DNA of 61,417 bases, from IMG/VR virus record IMGVR_UViG_3300045988_077264, positions 1 through 61,417 of that record; one strand, given 5' to 3'. The notes below the pieces were generated by a model that was not told where the DNA came from, did not search any database, and saw only the letters and a program-made list of their open reading frames with translations. The DNA is from a virus. The position numbers were made by a program, and so were the translations under genes. Shown one piece after another: positions 49,665-60,570 of this stretch; the stretch's first letter is position 1, and the number at the start of each line of letters is the position of its first letter.

Positions 49665-51398
49665 TTATATTCCAAGCTCGGCTCGGCTCATAATCTCAAC
49701 CTTTGTCATGCCACCATCAAATAACTGGAACAGCTGCACCAAGCCATCCGGACTATCATCATGTTCATTTTTTCCAAGTTGAGTAAACATTCCAAGTTCT
49801 TCCATTGCAGCCCTATATTCTTCACTCTGTAACTCTGGCTTAAGAAAATAGAATCTTCGTTTTATATCAGGTGCATACTGTATAATCTTTGCCATCTTGC
49901 TTATCTGGTTACTAGCTTTTGCCCAAGAAATATTGGTTTTAAAACCTTTATCTTTTAACTGGCGGTCAATATCTTCTGCGTATTCATCTCCACCATTATT
50001 GGCTTCGAATCTTTCCATATTCGGTTGATGTTGTAATGTTTTAGCCACAACAATAGGTTTTGTTGTATATTTATCTCCTTTATTGAAAATCCAATCAGGA
50101 ATATATATTGGTCCATCATCAGTACTTCCAAACAATTTTCCAAACGGCATTGACAAGCTATCATTTCCACCCCATGCAACATCACAGGCTGCTGCCGTAA
50201 TACATTCTCCATCCGGAAGAACACCGTTGTAGTAATTAAGCTCATCCAATGGGAAAAGCAAACCTTCTCGCACAAATGGCATCTGCTGATACTTTGCCAT
50301 CCATTCATTTCTATCCAACCTATCACGCATATTGCGATAGTATTCTGTAGAAAATCCAACGCCATAATCGTACTGGAAGTTTGATTCATCCTTTTCATTA
50401 AGTGCCGGTATCTTTCTAAACCGATATTTTGGATTATTCTTATTTTCCGCTTCGACACGTCCTAATGGGTCTAACACGTTCCATCGGGTTCCAACCATTA
50501 ACTCTTTGGAACCATCATTTTTACGGTCAACAAGGACGTTCAAATAATCTTGGTAGCGATTTTCAAGTCGGATAGGACTTAATGATTCAGTTCTGTCACG
50601 AACCATATCATCGACATACAAATATCCATCCGAACTAATATCAACCGCACCGGTCCATGTTCCATCAATTCCTCGGCATGTCAGTGTGGCAAAAGCTTCT
50701 GTTGGCGAATAAAACAATTCATTCTTTTCAGATGATTTATTTGCTAACTCAATCTCTGGGAATATCTCTTTGAATGTGTATTCCTCGTTTTCCGTCAGTT
50801 TTAATACATCCCGATAAAACCTGTCAGCAAGTATTCCTGAATGTCCTGACATGGCATTATGGCTCTCTGGATGTCTACCAATAACCCAGGTAAGAAAGAA
50901 GATACAGAGAGTGGACTTACCTACTCGTGGTGGGAGTGACAAACCATAGAAATCAAGCTTTCTGTCCTCCAAGTCTTGCAGATCGTCAACAACGATTTTG
51001 AGTGTCCGCATTCTCGGCTCATAGAATTTCTTTTCTGGTCGGCGATTCTTCTCCATATAGAAAAGGAATGATTCAAAATGATATAGTGCCTCTACTTTTA
51101 AAGTTCGCCAGTACAGTTCATCCATCTGTAAAATCTCAATACTGTTTTGAATCGCCCATCTGCAGCTATCCTTAATGTATGAAGTGACTTTCAACGCCCA
51201 AATCGTGTCGTTTTCCTTTTCAAATGCTACTTTCGCCACATCCAAGAGGTCAAACAGTGACCGATATTCAATTCCATGTTGTTTTATGTAATTTTTAATA
51301 TCATCAGCAGTTTCCCGCGTTTGTTCTGAAACCAAAAAAGAGCCTACCTCCCTTCTATCTTGGAAATAGGCTCTCTCTACATATGTGCCACACGGCAC
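49665..51398 (-). CDS. terL: Terminase large subunit
   Basis: The Walker A-like motif LSLPPRVGKSTL, an ATPase plus C-terminal nuclease layout, and a size of 577 aa. Confidence 0.85.
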   Translation of the reverse strand: MPCGTYVERAYFQDRREVGSFLVSEQTRETADDIKNYIKQHGIEYRSLFDLLDVAKVAFEKENDTIWALKVTSYIKDSCRWAIQNSIEILQMDELYWRTLKVEALYHFESFLFYMEKNRRPEKKFYEPRMRTLKIVVDDLQDLEDRKLDFYGLSLPPRVGKSTLCIFFLTWVIGRHPESHNAMSGHSGILADRFYRDVLKLTENEEYTFKEIFPEIELANKSSEKNELFYSPTEAFATLTCRGIDGTWTGAVDISSDGYLYVDDMVRDRTESLSPIRLENRYQDYLNVLVDRKNDGSKELMVGTRWNVLDPLGRVEAENKNNPKYRFRKIPALNEKDESNFQYDYGVGFSTEYYRNMRDRLDRNEWMAKYQQMPFVREGLLFPLDELNYYNGVLPDGECITAAACDVAWGGNDSLSMPFGKLFGSTDDGPIYIPDWIFNKGDKYTTKPIVVAKTLQHQPNMERFEANNGGDEYAEDIDRQLKDKGFKTNISWAKASNQISKMAKIIQYAPDIKRRFYFLKPELQSEEYRAAMEELGMFTQLGKNEHDDSPDGLVQLFQLFDGGMTKVEIMSRAELGI

Positions 51399-51421: not shown

Positions 51422-52630
51422 TTATTCACTTGCCTTAAAATTGTATACCGGTTTGATAATTGCAAGCACATCAACTGTATCTTTGATATTCTCAAAAATT
51501 TCATCCAATGTCTTATATGCCATTGGAGATTCATCTATTGTAGATTGATTGACAGAAGTTGTATATATTCCGTCCATTGCCTTTTCAAACTCTTCCAACG
51601 ATACTAATTCCTTGGCTTTTGTCCGGCTCATTACTCTACCGGCTCCATGAGGTGCGGATTGGTTCCAATCCTCATTTCCTTTTCCGGTACCAATAATGCA
51701 ACCGTCTCGCATATTGATTGGAATAAGTACCTTTTCTCCTAGTTTGGCTGAAATAGCGCCCTTGCGGACAATATTTGAATCATGGTCGATATAATTGTGA
51801 ATACACTCGAAGTAATCTGGCATATCGGCATCGACGTCCCATCCCATGTGGTTGCATATAATTTGAGCAATCATAACGCGGTTCATGTAGGCGAACTTCT
51901 GGCAAATTCTCATATCATGCAGATAATCTTCCCTGTATTTACCCTCTAAATAGCACAAATCCTTTGGAATATTCGGATTAACCGCCTTGAAATTTCTGTG
52001 CAATTCTGCTATGGCATTTTGAATTTCAGATTTTCTTCCAGTAGCTTTGTATTCTTCAATAATCCTGTCCTGTTCTTCATACAGTTTATCTTTGCCGCTC
52101 ATAAGTTCAAATGCAAGGTTCTGATAATAGTCAGCAACCTGTTTTCCGAGATTACGGCTACCGGTATGAATAACAAGATACTTATAACCATCCTCTGCAA
52201 CATCAACCTCAATGAAGTGATTTCCACCTCCGAGAGTGCCGATAGACCGCTCAAGCCGTTTTGTATCTCGCAATTCTCGGTAGCACTTCAAATCCTGTAA
52301 TTCATCGAATCTGATAATTCTTCCATCATGCACATCTCTTCCGCTTGGAACATAGGAACGAATCACGTTATCCAGCTTTTCAAAATCAATATCTGTCTGG
52401 CCAAGGCTTACGCAAAGCATACCGCAACCAATATCAACCCCAACAATGTTCGGTATAACTTTTTCCCCAAGGTCTGCTGTAAATCCAATAACACATCCCT
52501 TTCCGGCATGAATATCCGGCATGATACGAACTTTACAATCTTTGAATGCATCCTGTGCAAGCAATAATTCAATTTGATCTACCGCTTCCTGTTCAACGTT
52601 CTTGGTAAATATTTTTAAATCACTCATCAT
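51422..52630 (-). CDS. rtcB: RtcB-family RNA 3'-phosphate/5'-OH ligase
   Basis: VGVDIGCGM, HTGSRNLG and APHGAGR motifs. 402 aa. Confidence 0.9.
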   Translation of the reverse strand: MMSDLKIFTKNVEQEAVDQIELLLAQDAFKDCKVRIMPDIHAGKGCVIGFTADLGEKVIPNIVGVDIGCGMLCVSLGQTDIDFEKLDNVIRSYVPSGRDVHDGRIIRFDELQDLKCYRELRDTKRLERSIGTLGGGNHFIEVDVAEDGYKYLVIHTGSRNLGKQVADYYQNLAFELMSGKDKLYEEQDRIIEEYKATGRKSEIQNAIAELHRNFKAVNPNIPKDLCYLEGKYREDYLHDMRICQKFAYMNRVMIAQIICNHMGWDVDADMPDYFECIHNYIDHDSNIVRKGAISAKLGEKVLIPINMRDGCIIGTGKGNEDWNQSAPHGAGRVMSRTKAKELVSLEEFEKAMDGIYTTSVNQSTIDESPMAYKTLDEIFENIKDTVDVLAIIKPVYNFKASE

Positions 52631-52950
52631 TTCACCCCAATTCTATTGATTTTTCCGCATTTCGGACATTTGATTTCAGCCTGTCCGTTGAATTTACCTA
52701 ACAGGCGGTTGCATTTACTGCAACGATGCTCTACAAGCTGATTCTGCATCTTCCATTCGTCAATAATCTGCAGGATGAACCGCTTGCCGCTACGCATTTG
52801 GCTGTATACAACAATTTCATTTCCATTCTTTTCGCACTTTTCATATTCTCTGAGCAACTGTTTCTGAGATTCGGATAATGGAAATGGTGCGACTTCCTCT
52901 GCAAACTCCACAAGAGATATTTCATTCTCCTGTCTAGTTAATTCATTCAT
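52627..52950 (-). CDS. Protein with Com-like C-terminal zinc ribbon
   Basis: CSKCNRLLGKFNGQAEIKCPKCGKINRI resembles Mu Com. 4-nt overlap with the rtcB start. Confidence 0.45.
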   Translation of the reverse strand: MNELTRQENEISLVEFAEEVAPFPLSESQKQLLREYEKCEKNGNEIVVYSQMRSGKRFILQIIDEWKMQNQLVEHRCSKCNRLLGKFNGQAEIKCPKCGKINRIGVK

Positions 52951-53171
52951 TCTTCCACCAACTTTCTACCACACATCGGGCAAAATGCAATATAAAAATA
53001 TCCCATTGCCACTACAGACTGACTAATTAAAATACTTGGTACTTTATCCTCGCGGTCTTTAAAAATATTTGCTCTTGTCAAATTTGTCTCATTGGCGCAC
53101 TTTTTGATAGGAATATCAGCACCAAATATTTTATTATTTTCGTAATCTTTACAAAAATCACACATGCTCAT
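52947..53171 (-). CDS. Small zinc-binding protein
   Basis: CDFC...CPMCG. 74 aa, overlapping starts/stops with its neighbours. Confidence 0.4.
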   Translation of the reverse strand: MSMCDFCKDYENNKIFGADIPIKKCANETNLTRANIFKDREDKVPSILISQSVVAMGYFYIAFCPMCGRKLVEE

Positions 53172-53437
53172 ACCTCAATCAAAGTAAACTTACGAAGCGT
53201 TTTTGAATTTCCACGATGTAAAATACCATCTATATCACGATATGGCTCTTCCAACAATTGATGATGTTCTACATTTCCAAGATAAACTTTGCATGTTCTT
53301 CCCCCAATTGTAAGTTCTCCGAACATTTCACCTATTTCAGCATTGAAACCACTTACGTCATATGGAGTTTTACAATAAGGGCACGCTTCCTTATCTCTTT
53401 CGATTGGCGCACCACAATTTACACAATTTAAAATCAT
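53168..53437 (-). CDS. Small zinc-ribbon protein
   Basis: CVNCG...CPYC N-terminus. 89 aa. Confidence 0.4.
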   Translation of the reverse strand: MILNCVNCGAPIERDKEACPYCKTPYDVSGFNAEIGEMFGELTIGGRTCKVYLGNVEHHQLLEEPYRDIDGILHRGNSKTLRKFTLIEV

Positions 53438-54431: not shown

Positions 54432-54500
54432 ACCATCAATAAGTCTCCCATCGACCAGAACTATTGCAGTAGCACCTGACTAAGTGGAGATAAGGATAAG

Positions 54501-54586
54501 CGCAGTGCGTAGGACTCGAACCTACAAGGCGAATAAACGCCCGACCGGATAGCAACCGGCTCCAATTCCAATTATGGGAACACTTC
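54501..54586 (-). tRNA. tRNA-Ser (anticodon GCU), class II, no encoded CCA
   Basis: Hand fold: acceptor GAAGTGT/GCACTGC (6/7), D-stem CCA/TGG with GG in the loop, anticodon arm GCCGG-TTGCTAT-CCGGT, 18-nt variable arm GGCG/CGCC, and T-arm GTAGG-TTCGAGT-CCTAC. Confidence 0.7.
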
Positions 54587-54651
54587 CGAATTTTCTTGTA
54601 TCGTCAAGAACATTAGGAAAGAAACGACGGATACCTTTCTTGCTGGAGTTA

Positions 54652-54790
54652 TGCCCGCAGGTGGATTTGAACCACCATTCTGCAACCTTGCTTACTCCGA
54701 TTATTTCAAGCGGAAAGTGCCGGAATCGAACCGACCTCACGGATTATTGGTGTACCTCACCGTAATTGCTGCCTTGCGATATACCTTTCC
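54652..54790 (-). ncRNA. Composite tRNA-like unit (T4 80-nt element plus 5'-truncated tRNA-Ser(UGA)-like T3)
   Basis: T4 (54711-54790): acceptor GGAAAGG/ACTTTCC (6/7) and T-arm GTCGG-TTCGATT-CCGGC. T3 (54652-54717): TTCCG-CTTGAAA(TAAT)-CGGAG, variable arm GCAA-GG-TTGC and T-arm GGTGG-TTCAAAT-CCACC, but no 5' acceptor or D arm. Confidence 0.35.
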
Positions 54791-54922
54791 ATACTCGTCA
54801 ACGAACTTTCATCGTCCTGTTTCCACACTTTTTAAGTCGACAATGCTTCCATCACAAGAAAAACATCATTTATTACACTAAAACTCGTCAGTCTTATCAC
54901 ATAAACAATATTTTACAACGCA

Positions 54923-55012
54923 TGGGGAAGAGAGGAATTGAACCTCCAATGTTTACCACTTGGGAACTGATTTACAGTCAGCTGCAACACCGCCAATCGT
55001 TGCCGCTTCCCC
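54923..55012 (-). tRNA. tRNA-Tyr (anticodon GUA), class II, no encoded CCA
   Basis: Acceptor GGGGAAG/CTTCCCC (7/7), D-arm GCAAC-GATTGGCGGT-GTTGC, anticodon arm GCTGA-CTGTAAA-TCAGT, 18-nt variable region, and T-arm GGAGG-TTCAATT-CCTCT. Confidence 0.8.
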
Positions 55013-55089
55013 AAAATGCGCGGACACCTCACTCCGTATCTCTGTATGCGACCGCGCTACGCATACAGTATCAAATCAGCTCGGCACCA

Positions 55090-55182
55090 TCGGAACGGAA
55101 GGATTCGAACCCCCGACTTTCCATCTTTCGATGTCGTGAATTAACACACGCTTGAACGCTCTTGCCAACGAGCTACGTTCCG
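55090..55182 (-). ncRNA. tRNA-like RNA T6 (canonical acceptor, D and T arms with about 20 extra nt in the anticodon region)
   Basis: Acceptor CGGAACG/CGTTCCG (7/7), TA, D-arm GCTC-GTTGGCAA-GAGC and T-arm GGGGG-TTCGAAT-CCTTC. There are 42 nt where about 22 are expected, forming the hairpins CGTG-TGTTAATT-CACG and CATC-GAAA-GATG. Confidence 0.45.
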
Positions 55183-58531: not shown

Positions 58532-58920
58532 TAAGTGCATTATATAGTCAATATTATAAGTGCATTATTTTCTATATTTTTCCATTCTTTCCAATTCTGC
58601 TGCAACAACTTCTTTTATAAATGTACTAGGGTTTTTAACTCCAACCGCTTGCATTCTGTCCCTTGTTCCGGCTGGAAAAATTACATTTATTCTATCATTC
58701 TTCTTTTCATACTCTCGAACCGCTTTTCTCTGTGCAGCCGAAGTTTTCAATTCTATTTCGCTCATGCGTTATACCTCGCTTATATTCATAATTCTTTAGA
58801 TAAGTATATAATAAGTGCATTATTTTGTCAATTTATAAGTGCATTATACATTATGCACAATTTGATATTATGTATAAGTGCATTATTTTGTTTATTTAAT
58901 CAATTGTATAAGTGCATTAT
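58532..58920 (+). repeat. Six direct copies of TAAGTGCATTAT (operator/iteron-like)
   Basis: Copies at 58532, 58557, 58812, 58836, 58875 and 58909, all in the same orientation. Five of them share the extended form TATAAGTGCATTAT. Confidence 0.7.
58565..58765 (-). CDS. Ribbon-helix-helix-like small DNA-binding protein
   Basis: RINVIFPAGTRDRMQAVGVKNPSTFIKEVVAAEL fits a beta-alpha-alpha (RHH) pattern. The gene is flanked on both sides by the TAAGTGCATTAT repeats. Confidence 0.5.
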   Translation of the reverse strand: MSEIELKTSAAQRKAVREYEKKNDRINVIFPAGTRDRMQAVGVKNPSTFIKEVVAAELERMEKYRK

Positions 58921-58956
58921 ATTTGTTATTATATATTCAACAAGAGAACAACAGAA

Positions 58957-59313
58957 ATGAAAGCGAGGTTTTCCAATATGAAAGATTATACAAAATTTAT
59001 GAAATGGGCCGTTGTTTACATGATTGATAGAAAGACTCAAGACAACCGGAAAAGCAAGGTACAGGTTGAAGCGCTGTTCTCAAGTGCAACACAGGCGAAC
59101 GACAATTATATAATTCACAATCCGGAGCATAAGCGCTATATCATCCACATTGACGATTTAGAAGAGTTTGAAACCATTTATAACCAGTTTCAGGACTTAC
59201 GCGAGAAATACGGAGAATATGCAATTTTTCACATCGAAGATTTAAAACTCGGATGCGATAAAGAAAATAAATACAGATATATTTTAAATGTTTATACAAG
59301 TATTGATTTTTAG
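58957..59313 (+). CDS. Small hypothetical protein (ORF1 of the right-arm operon)
   Basis: The ORF ends at TAG 59311-59313. The likely start is 58978 (GAGG 9 nt upstream) or 58957. Confidence 0.45.
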   Translation: MKARFSNMKDYTKFMKWAVVYMIDRKTQDNRKSKVQVEALFSSATQANDNYIIHNPEHKRYIIHIDDLEEFETIYNQFQDLREKYGEYAIFHIEDLKLGCDKENKYRYILNVYTSIDF

Positions 59314-59378
59314 CCGAAACGCTCCGCCCTGGAGCGTCAGCCGCGGGATGGTCGCCCGGCTCTGATGATGGCAGACCA
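59313..59378 (+). ncRNA. Type II hammerhead ribozyme candidate HH1
   Basis: GCC-GAAAC, stem III GCUCC/GGAGC, GUC (C17 = 59338), stem I AGCCG/CGGCU, CUGAUGA (59362-59368), then GGC. Loop I UGGUC pairs with GACCA (59374-59378). Confidence 0.65.
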
Positions 59379-59390
59379 GAAAGGAAAAAT

Positions 59391-59780
59391 ATGACAACAT
59401 TGAAAATTGAAAATAATAAAATCTATAGCACTTCTGCACTTTGTGAAAGAACTGACGTTTTTGAAATCGTGGAGAAAATCCCAACTGGCTTTTTCGTTTG
59501 GGGAATTGGCGAAAACATGGGAACACATGAATATATTCCAGTTTGCGAGGACTTACACCCGGAAGACAAAGACAATTTTGAAATCAATCTTACAACCCTT
59601 AAAGCCGTAAAAGTTGCGCCGGATGAATGGGAAAAGCTCGACAAAGCGGCATCTTGGGGCATTGGAAACCTTAAACAGGCAGAAAAAGCCTTGAAAAGTA
59701 AACGCCACGGCTACACAGCCGACAGGAAAAGGGCCGCCGCAGAACTTACAATTGATATTTTCCGCAGAATTTGCAAATAG
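59391..59780 (+). CDS. Hypothetical protein (ORF2, between the two hammerheads)
   Basis: 129-aa ORF with an AAAGGAAAAAT RBS. Confidence 0.5.
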   Translation: MTTLKIENNKIYSTSALCERTDVFEIVEKIPTGFFVWGIGENMGTHEYIPVCEDLHPEDKDNFEINLTTLKAVKVAPDEWEKLDKAASWGIGNLKQAEKALKSKRHGYTADRKRAAAELTIDIFRRICK

Positions 59781-59844
59781 TCGAAACCGCCGCCAGGCGG
59801 TCTGCAGGAACTGTGCCCTACCTGCACCGATGAGACAGGGCACA
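59780..59844 (+). ncRNA. Type II hammerhead-like element HH2 (U4-to-C core variant)
   Basis: GUC-GAAAC, stem III CGCC/GGCG, GUC (C17 = 59802), stem I UGCAGG/CCUGCA, CCGAUGA, then GAC. Loop I UGUGCCCU pairs with AGGGCACA (59837-59844). Confidence 0.5.
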
Positions 59845-59866: not shown

Positions 59867-60046
59867 ATGACAAAAAAAGAACAGTATGAAAGCCACAAAA
59901 AGACATTTTTAGAAATCCGCGATTTCTTTTTGAAAAATCATGAAGAATTTGCACTTGCAAAGGCTTTTCACAAGCCTATGAAATTTTACGGAGAGCACAC
60001 AAAAAAGAAATGCATTGAAATTTTAAGAAAAGAAGCCAAAGCATAG
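59867..60046 (+). CDS. Small hypothetical protein (ORF3)
   Basis: MTKKEQYESHKK... ATG at 59867 follows AAAGGATGG. Confidence 0.45.
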   Translation: MTKKEQYESHKKTFLEIRDFFLKNHEEFALAKAFHKPMKFYGEHTKKKCIEILRKEAKA

Positions 60047-60063
60047 AAAGGTCGGTTGATTTT

Positions 60064-60240
60064 ATGGAATTTATGGAGAAATTGCAGAAACAGAAAGACG
60101 ATGCGCGAGCCGCTTATATTAAAGCCCGGAACGAATGGGCGGACACCAGAACCGCTGAAAACATTAAGGGCGACTTTGAAAAATGGAAAATCTTGTGTGA
60201 CCGAAAAGCAGATTGTATGCGCTTTGGTGTACTTATTTAA
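60064..60240 (+). CDS. Small helical protein (ORF4, 58 aa)
   Basis: MEFMEKLQKQKDDARAAYIKARNEW... ATG follows GAAAGGTCGG. Preferred over the overlapping TTG-start ORF 60056-60295. Confidence 0.4.
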   Translation: MEFMEKLQKQKDDARAAYIKARNEWADTRTAENIKGDFEKWKILCDRKADCMRFGVLI

Positions 60241-60285
60241 GCAAGCGGCGGCGTTTTCCGGGGTTCGATTCCCCGGCTTGCTTTT
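60241..60285 (+). terminator. Terminator-like hairpin shaped as a tRNA acceptor/T-arm minihelix
   Basis: GCAAGC...CGGGG-TTCGATT-CCCCG-GCTTGC-TTTT, with a 5-bp T-stem, a canonical T-loop and a contiguous 6-bp acceptor-like stem. Confidence 0.5.
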
Positions 60286-60330
60286 ACCCGGATAACCGGG
60301 AAAAAATGAAAATATGGAGGAAATAAGGAC

Positions 60331-60525: not shown

Positions 60526-60542
60526 CCGCCGCAGAGGATGTC

Positions 60543-60570
60543 CGCCGGATCACTACCGGCGGCGGTTTTG
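60543..60570 (+). terminator. Rho-independent terminator of the right-arm operon
   Basis: CCGCCGG-atcacta-CCGGCGG followed by CGGTTTT. Confidence 0.55.

Follow-up and report, generated by a model that had tools for sequence, protein, structure and literature searches.

Hammerhead ribozymes that flank single prophage genes of changing identity were described by Perreault et al. (2011; PMC3088659), who found elements of type II with pseudoknots between loop I and the 3' tail, clustered near integrases, and proposed that the transcript is processed to single-gene messenger RNAs (mRNAs). Such prophage arrays cleave both in vitro and in E. coli. The same study considered whether the products are ligated into circular or spliced RNAs and did not detect any (PMC3088659). 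We analysed a 61,417-nucleotide viral sequence, IMG/VR record IMGVR_UViG_3300045988_077264 (its complete length is called the window below), in which two type II hammerheads, HH1 and HH2, bracket a single small open reading frame (ORF) on the plus strand, and in which an RtcB RNA ligase is encoded some distance away on the minus strand. Overall, we consider it probable that the two elements act as ribozymes that would process a polycistronic RNA into single-gene mRNAs at junctions made up of stop codon, hammerhead and Shine-Dalgarno (SD) sequence, with RtcB as a separate accessory gene.

The locus shares most of its features with the prophage systems of Clostridium scindens, Agrobacterium tumefaciens, and Azorhizobium caulinodans (PMC3088659): in each, the hammerheads are of type II, carry a pseudoknot, are intergenic and on the coding strand, and bracket single small genes of changing identity, and the phages are likewise prophages with an integrase, with a Clostridia host. 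It differs from them in belonging to another phage group and in having one hammerhead with a cytosine at core position 4 (C4), and the overlap of stop codon and stem II and the adjacency of the SD sequence are quantified here. An architecture in which hammerheads cut prophage polycistronic RNA at gene junctions is thus already known. An earlier note on this DNA had proposed a functional pairing of the hammerheads with the phage RtcB and was not aware of a described one; the novelty is smaller than stated there because Perreault et al. described the bracketing, the processing, and the idea of circular products (PMC3088659). In the literature searched, no natural hammerhead-RtcB system of phages or bacteria was described, and what came up were engineered systems and the retrozymes of eukaryotes. 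The points that are new are modest and comprise the base-precise junction of stop codon, hammerhead and SD sequence, the prevalence of the C4 core, and a gathering threshold in Rfam that misses two of the three hammerhead subtypes found; the common C4 core is the most notable by-product.

The features of the locus are listed in Table 1. HH1 matched the Rfam model RF02276 end to end at 69.9 bits, against a gathering threshold of 37 (E=1.6e-12); its minimum-free-energy fold is the hammerhead secondary structure, and its core is complete (CUGAUGA, GAAA, A-U, and C17). HH2 aligned over the full model (positions 1-66), and all of its core positions are canonical except for the replacement of U4 by C. 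Our own stem-checked type II descriptor, applied to both strands, found exactly two sites in the window, HH1 and HH2, and none in the 40 block-shuffled windows that served as the control, and a permissive Rfam scan of both strands detected zero members of other ribozyme families in the window.

Table 1. Positions of the hammerheads, the flanking cistrons, RtcB, and the transfer RNA (tRNA) genes in the window.
Feature	Position	Strand	Evidence or remark
HH1, canonical type II hammerhead, subtype A	59312..59380	+	Rfam RF02276, fold, homologues, pseudoknot covariation
HH1 stem II	GCC 59313-15 / GGC 59370-72	+	extra U at 59369; upstream TAG stop 59311-59313
HH1 GAAAC	59316-20	+	G12-A14 = 59316-18
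HH1 stem III, GCUCC/GGAGC	59319-59337	+	
HH1 predicted cleavage	59338/59339	+	after C17 = 59338, in GUC
HH1 stem I	59339-59361	+	
HH1 core CUGAUGA	59362-68	+	
HH1 pseudoknot	loop I UGGUC 59349-53 with GACCA 59374-78	+	5 bp
HH2, type II hammerhead, subtype B, C4 core variant	59779..59844	+	alignment of relatives; Rfam below gathering
HH2 stem II, GUC/GAC	59780-82/59834-36	+	upstream TAG stop 59778-80
HH2 GAAAC	59783-87	+	
HH2 stem III, CGCC/GGCG	59786-59801	+	
HH2 predicted cleavage	59802/59803	+	after C17 = 59802
HH2 stem I, UGCAGG/CCUGCA	59803-08/59821-26	+	
HH2 core CCGAUGA	59827-33	+	
HH2 pseudoknot	loop I UGUGCCCU 59812-19 with AGGGCACA 59837-44	+	8 bp
Upstream cistron, 133 aa, ORFan	58912..59313	+	last base of TAG stop = first base of HH1 stem II
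Bracketed cistron, 129 aa, ORFan	59391..59780	+	SD AAAGGA 59380-85; TAG stop overlaps HH2 stem II
Downstream cistron, 59 aa from ATG 59867	59867..60046	+	SD AAAGGA 59850-55, 3' of HH2 tail
RtcB RNA ligase, 402 aa, apparently intact	51422..52630	-	PF01139 1.1e-61; PHROG 1075 4e-134
tRNA array	54500..55182	-	upstream of RtcB, same strand
tRNA-Ser(GCU)	54500-54586	-	
tRNA-Tyr(GUA)	54922-55013	-	
Atypical 93-nt tRNA-like element	55090-55182	-	Rfam tRNA 40.2 bits; uncalled by ARAGORN

The window and its related loci contained 188 hammerheads in 103/107 sources, every one of them on the coding strand. They fall into three subtypes, A (HH1-like, with homologues of HH1 at >80 loci), B (HH2-like), and C, distinguished from one another by their stem I, loop I and 3' tail. 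When 50 unique sequences of subtype B were aligned, pairing was 100% in each of stems I, II and III and 94.7% over all cells, vs at most 48.5% in controls in which the partner was slid along; four pairs show double-sided changes, and the observed covariation score was reached by none of 500 shuffles. A 5-bp core of the subtype B pseudoknot is kept in 47-48/50 variants, and a 2-nt loop insertion of its own lengthens the pseudoknot of HH2 in the window to 8 bp. Across subtypes, the mean helix between loop I and its own 3' tail is 5.0 bp, compared with 3.3-3.4 bp in the controls, and this complementarity is maintained by at least eight different sequence pairs, which include UGGUC/GACCA, UGCCC/GGGCA, UUGC/GCAA, UGGC/GCCA, UGAUC/GAUCA, UAGCCU/AGGCUA, and UUCGCC/GGCGAG. 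The earlier note had placed both elements by reading the letters; every one of its HH1 and HH2 coordinates agrees with the sequence, its assignment of both to type II is borne out by the Rfam alignment, the descriptor and the fully paired stems, and both of its loop I/3'-tail pseudoknots proved real by covariation across relatives.

The position of the hammerheads relative to the flanking genes is precise. The TAG stop codon ends on the first base of stem II in 98 of 119 unique contexts, and an SD sequence plus start codon lie within 45 nt of the core in 117 of the 119, so the nesting between stop codon and SD sequence that the earlier note had pointed out in the window is conserved. Over 100 related phage contigs have the same junction, in which the small ORFs enclosed are of at least eight unrelated kinds, and the junction sequence CACAAUGAAAGGAUGG is kept 3' of most subtype B copies. 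The stretch between the two predicted cuts is 464 nt, the length previously given for it. A stem III hairpin terminates each predicted upstream product (-11.8 and -13.3 kcal/mol), and predicted downstream products start with stem I. Sequestration of the SD sequences was looked for in the predicted folds, where both were unpaired or only weakly paired, and gating of translation found no support there. Note that the start codon in the ORF list, ATG 59855, abuts the SD sequence AAAGGA at 59850-55, and that ATG 59867 is the likelier start downstream of HH2.

The sequence of events that we propose begins with HH1 and HH2 acting in cis as type II self-cleaving ribozymes at consecutive intercistronic junctions of a plus-strand operon of ORFans. 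Cuts after C17 would leave the upstream cistron complete, with a terminal stem III hairpin and a 2',3'-cyclic phosphate, and would give the downstream cistron a 5'-OH end followed by the stem I hairpin and pseudoknot and then by an intact ribosome-binding site. Both cistrons would survive cleavage intact because the stop codon overlaps stem II and the SD sequence follows the pseudoknot tail. With its consensus core, HH1 would be expected to cleave fast. The polycistronic RNA would in this way be resolved into single-gene mRNAs with structured ends, and the stability and translation of neighbouring cassettes would be uncoupled. In Firmicutes, RNAs with a 5'-OH end can become targets of RNase J1, as happens to the product of the glmS ribozyme, and that enzyme is expected to be hindered by a hairpin at the 5' terminus that leaves no overhang. 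The base-precise junction amounts to a natural "insulator" design and is of interest for synthetic operons.

Several points weigh against processing of this kind. Cleavage and the transcripts of this phage are predicted from the sequence alone; the transcription unit is deduced solely from the tight packing of the genes and from consensus promoter and terminator matches, and the direction of an effect on mRNA stability is not predictable from sequence. The close relatedness of the sequences keeps covariation inside each subtype modest. HH2 scored 31.0 bits against RF02276 (E=0.025 in the whole window and 8e-5 in a local search), below the gathering threshold, so the covariance-model check that had been suggested earlier came out positive for HH1 and negative for HH2. 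In addition, U4 is almost invariant in hammerheads, and its change to C lowers activity in vitro (PMC3088659), so that HH2 might cleave poorly.

The last two points lead to the rival that survives best, namely that only HH1 is active and that HH2 is a dead relic whose hairpins serve as an intercistronic stabiliser, a binding site for a protein, or a linker for recombination. Beyond the substitution and the score, the 8-bp loop/tail helix of the copy in the window competes with stem I in nested folding. The score, however, does not single out HH2, as copies of subtype B with a canonical CUGAUGA core reached only 33.6-35.4 bits and were equally below gathering; the low score is thus a property of the subtype relative to the Rfam seed rather than a sign of decay, and C4 costs only about 4 bits. 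Subtype C scores were 31-35 bits. Stem-intact examples of subtypes B and C with canonical cores at 31-35 bits are L020:3389-3452, L098:3335-3396, L053:3386-3452, and L051:3380-3449. Routine annotation with the RF02276 gathering threshold would therefore miss subtypes B and C.

Nor is the C4 core an oddity of the window. CCGAUGA is found in 34/50 unique subtype B variants and 58/87 copies, with a single further occurrence in subtype A and another in subtype C; at least 5 bp of stem III, at least 5 bp of stem I and at least 3 bp of stem II are kept by every one of the 60 C4 copies. The remainder of the core (G5, A6, G8, A9, G12-A14, A15.1-U16.1, and C17) is invariant in the 50 subtype B variants. 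A Lachnospiraceae metagenome-assembled genome (L263) has the same bracket around a cargo ORF of 62% identity, and its downstream hammerhead combines C4 with a stem I whose base has changed in a compensatory way (CGCAGG/CCUGCG). Among the IMG/VR matches listed, C4 cores occur with at least 33 distinct stem I hairpins, several of which are unrelated to subtype B, and C4 thus recurs in many unrelated hammerhead lineages. The compensatory change in L263, the intact stems, and the recurrence across stem I lineages indicate that C4 is an old, recurrent and selectively maintained allele and not a one-off lesion. A U4C viroid variant is quoted as having "considerably" decreased activity in vitro with infectivity sustained (Ambros & Flores 1998, as cited in PMC3088659), slow phage hammerhead variants may be condition-dependent (PMC3088659), and with A6C, a natural core change of phage and gut hammerheads, Mn2+ becomes the preferred metal (PMC7151607). 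Like HH2, the U4C and A6C elements have a single core substitution in an otherwise intact hammerhead with tertiary contacts and, as far as those cited accounts go, they offer precedent for remaining biologically active or becoming condition-dependent; HH2 differs from known rare core variants in that C4 is the majority allele of the phage subtype B and is present in many lineages.

We regard HH2 as a genuine hammerhead homologue that is probably a slower or condition-dependent cutter. That it is dead is unlikely because a catalytic core retained in this way is not expected in a dead ribozyme. The wider consequence is that a core usually treated as inactivating is the majority allele of subtype B and recurs in many gut-phage lineages; because C4 is common and accompanied by intact covarying stems, both the accepted consensus and the Rfam gathering threshold would under-count functional or condition-dependent hammerheads.

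A second alternative is that the hammerhead sequences act mainly as DNA homology linkers for swapping single-gene cassettes, with ribozyme activity being secondary. The cassettes themselves are evident: in this phage group, at least eight unrelated cargo ORF families (46-129 amino acids) occur one at a time between consecutive hammerheads, the hammerhead types being the same, and long homology blocks shared by the window and its relatives have about 47% of their breakpoints in the 210 nt (~5%) covered by HH1 and HH2. Hybrid elements also exist. Those at L086:3337-3420 and L087:3340-3423 have a subtype A body and a subtype B downstream junction, and that at L263:10394-10445 joins the stem I and loop of the B type to a stem II of the A type (GCC / U-GGC); both kinds suggest that recombination took place inside or next to the ribozymes. 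Hammerhead junctions are thus also the places where exchangeable single-gene cassettes begin and end. However, the compensatory changes in stems and pseudoknots point to selection on RNA rather than on DNA identity, all copies are on the coding strand, and junctions free of hammerheads (60040 and 60320) are breakpoint hot spots as well. Because of those hammerhead-free hot spots, a linker role is a possible additional function and not the main one, and we regard it as improbable as the principal explanation; it can of course coexist with mRNA processing.

The coupling proposed in the earlier note fares far worse. It holds that cleavage at HH1 and HH2 releases the 464-nt RNA, which the phage RtcB then religates or circularises, the ribozymes and the ligase forming one functional system. 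The ligase is indeed where the earlier note had put it, as confirmed by Pfam (PF01139) and PHROG (1075), and its motifs MPDIHxGxG, GVDIGCG, GGGNHFIE, IHTGSRxLG, and HGAGR align to solved RtcB structures. With catalytic motifs kept, the chemistry fits, since RtcB joins 5'-OH and 2',3'-cyclic-phosphate ends. Circular mRNAs engineered from ribozymes and RtcB function in E. coli, and the circles of retrozymes are attributed to an RtcB-type ligase (PMC7229834). In both retrozymes and Tornado-type circular mRNAs, as here, two flanking ribozymes would yield ends that RtcB can seal; they differ from this locus in that the ligase and the ribozymes are not co-inherited here and the flanking ribozymes are not repeats of one unit. 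A chimeric hammerhead spanning the ligation junction would have a compatible stem II, in which the HH2 5' half GUC and the HH1 3' half GGC form 3 bp, one of them G-U; apart from these 3 bp, and unlike the circular RNA systems, the locus shows no helix that would join the ends (a longer joining helix was not searched for). A few relatives have both features (L109, L113, L114, L187, L188, and L201).

The distribution of the two across phages nevertheless shows no association; this comparison covers the phage RtcB and not that of the host. RtcB is present in about 12/78 terminase-anchored loci and is missing from the syntenic slot in six contigs that have the same or similar hammerhead brackets and carry the closest copies of the pair: L194 (on one contig with L001), L186 (with L002), L193 (with L004), L224 (with L007), L212 (with L046), and L192 (with L085). 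In the first of these, the cargo ORF is 99% identical to that of the window, yet RtcB is absent; L263 likewise has the bracket but no RtcB. Hammerhead-bearing contigs among the RtcB matches amounted to 1/103 (in the best 80 of 94 matches, so that a few more overlaps are possible), 6/79 RtcB loci have a hammerhead within 10 kb on either side, and several loci with a 96%-identical RtcB and full flanks have none. Loci anchored on the large terminase and extending at least 9 kb upstream of it were divided into four with both RtcB and hammerheads, three with RtcB only, nine with hammerheads only, and 16 with neither (Fisher p=0.40). Because of the six hammerhead-pair contigs without RtcB, the 1/103 and 6/79 overlaps, and this p value, the hammerheads and RtcB are, as judged from these loci, independent accessory modules, and the proposed functional pairing is not supported.

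Position and reading frame argue in the same direction. RtcB is on the strand opposite to the hammerheads, in the packaging module and immediately upstream of the large terminase (49665-51398, -), and beside the tRNA array, which lies about 1.9 kb away, RtcB being downstream of it in its own orientation. Because the 464-nt unit contains a stop codon of its own and its length is not divisible by three, no adaptation to circular translation is apparent. Perreault et al. sought circular or spliced products and found none (PMC3088659). We therefore hold a phage system in which RtcB seals the released RNA to be very improbable. An elaborated version, in which the bracketed RNAs are sealed to circular or religated mRNAs by the RtcB of phage or host through the chimeric hammerhead, with C4 tuning the balance of cleavage and ligation and the phage enzyme being an optional booster, is a similarly distant prospect. 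The comparative evidence thus allows ribozyme-RtcB coupling to be set aside, and experimental effort is saved. The remaining possibility, that the HH1 and HH2 motifs are chance matches, has nothing in its favour beyond the sub-threshold score of HH2 and is refuted by the Rfam E value of HH1, the covariation and pseudoknot pairing across hundreds of conserved homologues, and the empty shuffled windows.

The most likely function of the phage RtcB is tRNA or RNA repair beside the phage tRNA array. Known phage RNA-repair sets in which RtcB accompanies tRNA genes (PHROG 1075 is named 'tRNA splicing ligase') resemble this one in the same-strand array and the hypervariable region; unlike them, the RtcB neighbours here include no detectable Archease, RtcA, Pnkp/Hen1 or other RNA-repair partner and are instead zinc-ribbon proteins, one encoded immediately upstream (52627-52950, -) and another two genes further (53168-53437, -), one of which resembles the Mu translational regulator Com (PF10122, 1e-6). 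Among relatives, the tRNA array upstream of the terminase contains zero to six genes, with or without RtcB, and RtcB is a sporadic accessory gene of the hypervariable region between the array and the terminase. The 93-nt element of the array folds into a cloverleaf with an 8-bp acceptor stem, normal D and T arms, a long variable hairpin (CAUC-GAAA-GAUG), and an odd anticodon arm with a 4-bp stem and an 8-nt loop, UGUUAAUU. An atypical tRNA-Leu(UAA) and a suppressor-like tRNA are possible identities for it; relatives have a tRNA-Gln at this position of the array, with which it is not homologous. The idea that RtcB serves an intron-containing or split tRNA was dropped, since this element is a cloverleaf with a long variable arm and shows no sign of an intron. 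Two segments that resemble T arms, GGTCGGTTCGATTCCGGC and GGTGGTTCAAATCCACC, at 54650-54800 (-) between tRNA-Tyr and tRNA-Ser, look like decayed tRNA genes; relatives carry tRNA-Glu and tRNA-Asn in their place.

The phage itself is temperate and tailed, as identified by the integrase (100-1329), portal and large terminase that it encodes, and its host is among the gut Clostridia/Lachnospiraceae; prophage homologues of the cargo gene were found in Clostridium sp. CAG:510 and in one Lachnospiraceae metagenome-assembled genome. No close relatives were found among GenBank phages, where only the HH1 segment was matched, in two unannotated records. The genes flanking the hammerheads are tightly packed plus-strand ORFans, and a terminator-like hairpin is found at 60542-60562. 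Homologues of the upstream ORF were detected in 26 IMG/VR stretches and those of the bracketed ORF in 106. The upstream cistron had zero matches in Pfam, PHROG and NCBIfam, and the bracketed cistron had zero in Pfam, PHROG, NCBIfam, and PDB sequence searches; the single other match to the bracketed or neighbouring ORFs was a hypothetical protein of Streptococcus virus MS1 with 33% identity.

Dense arrays of hammerheads at gene junctions are widespread in phages of many environments. The densest seen was at L406:8403-11318 (IMGVR_UViG_3300008255_000242), with seven pattern matches in 3 kb, and L405 and L450 had three each. Finally, CCGGGGTTCGATTCCCCGG at 60258-60276 (+), at the 3' end of ORF 60056-60295, forms a perfect hairpin like that of a tRNA T arm; it is about 1.2 kb from the window end, the integrase gene being near the opposite end, and may be a tRNA 3' fragment that marks the attachment site.

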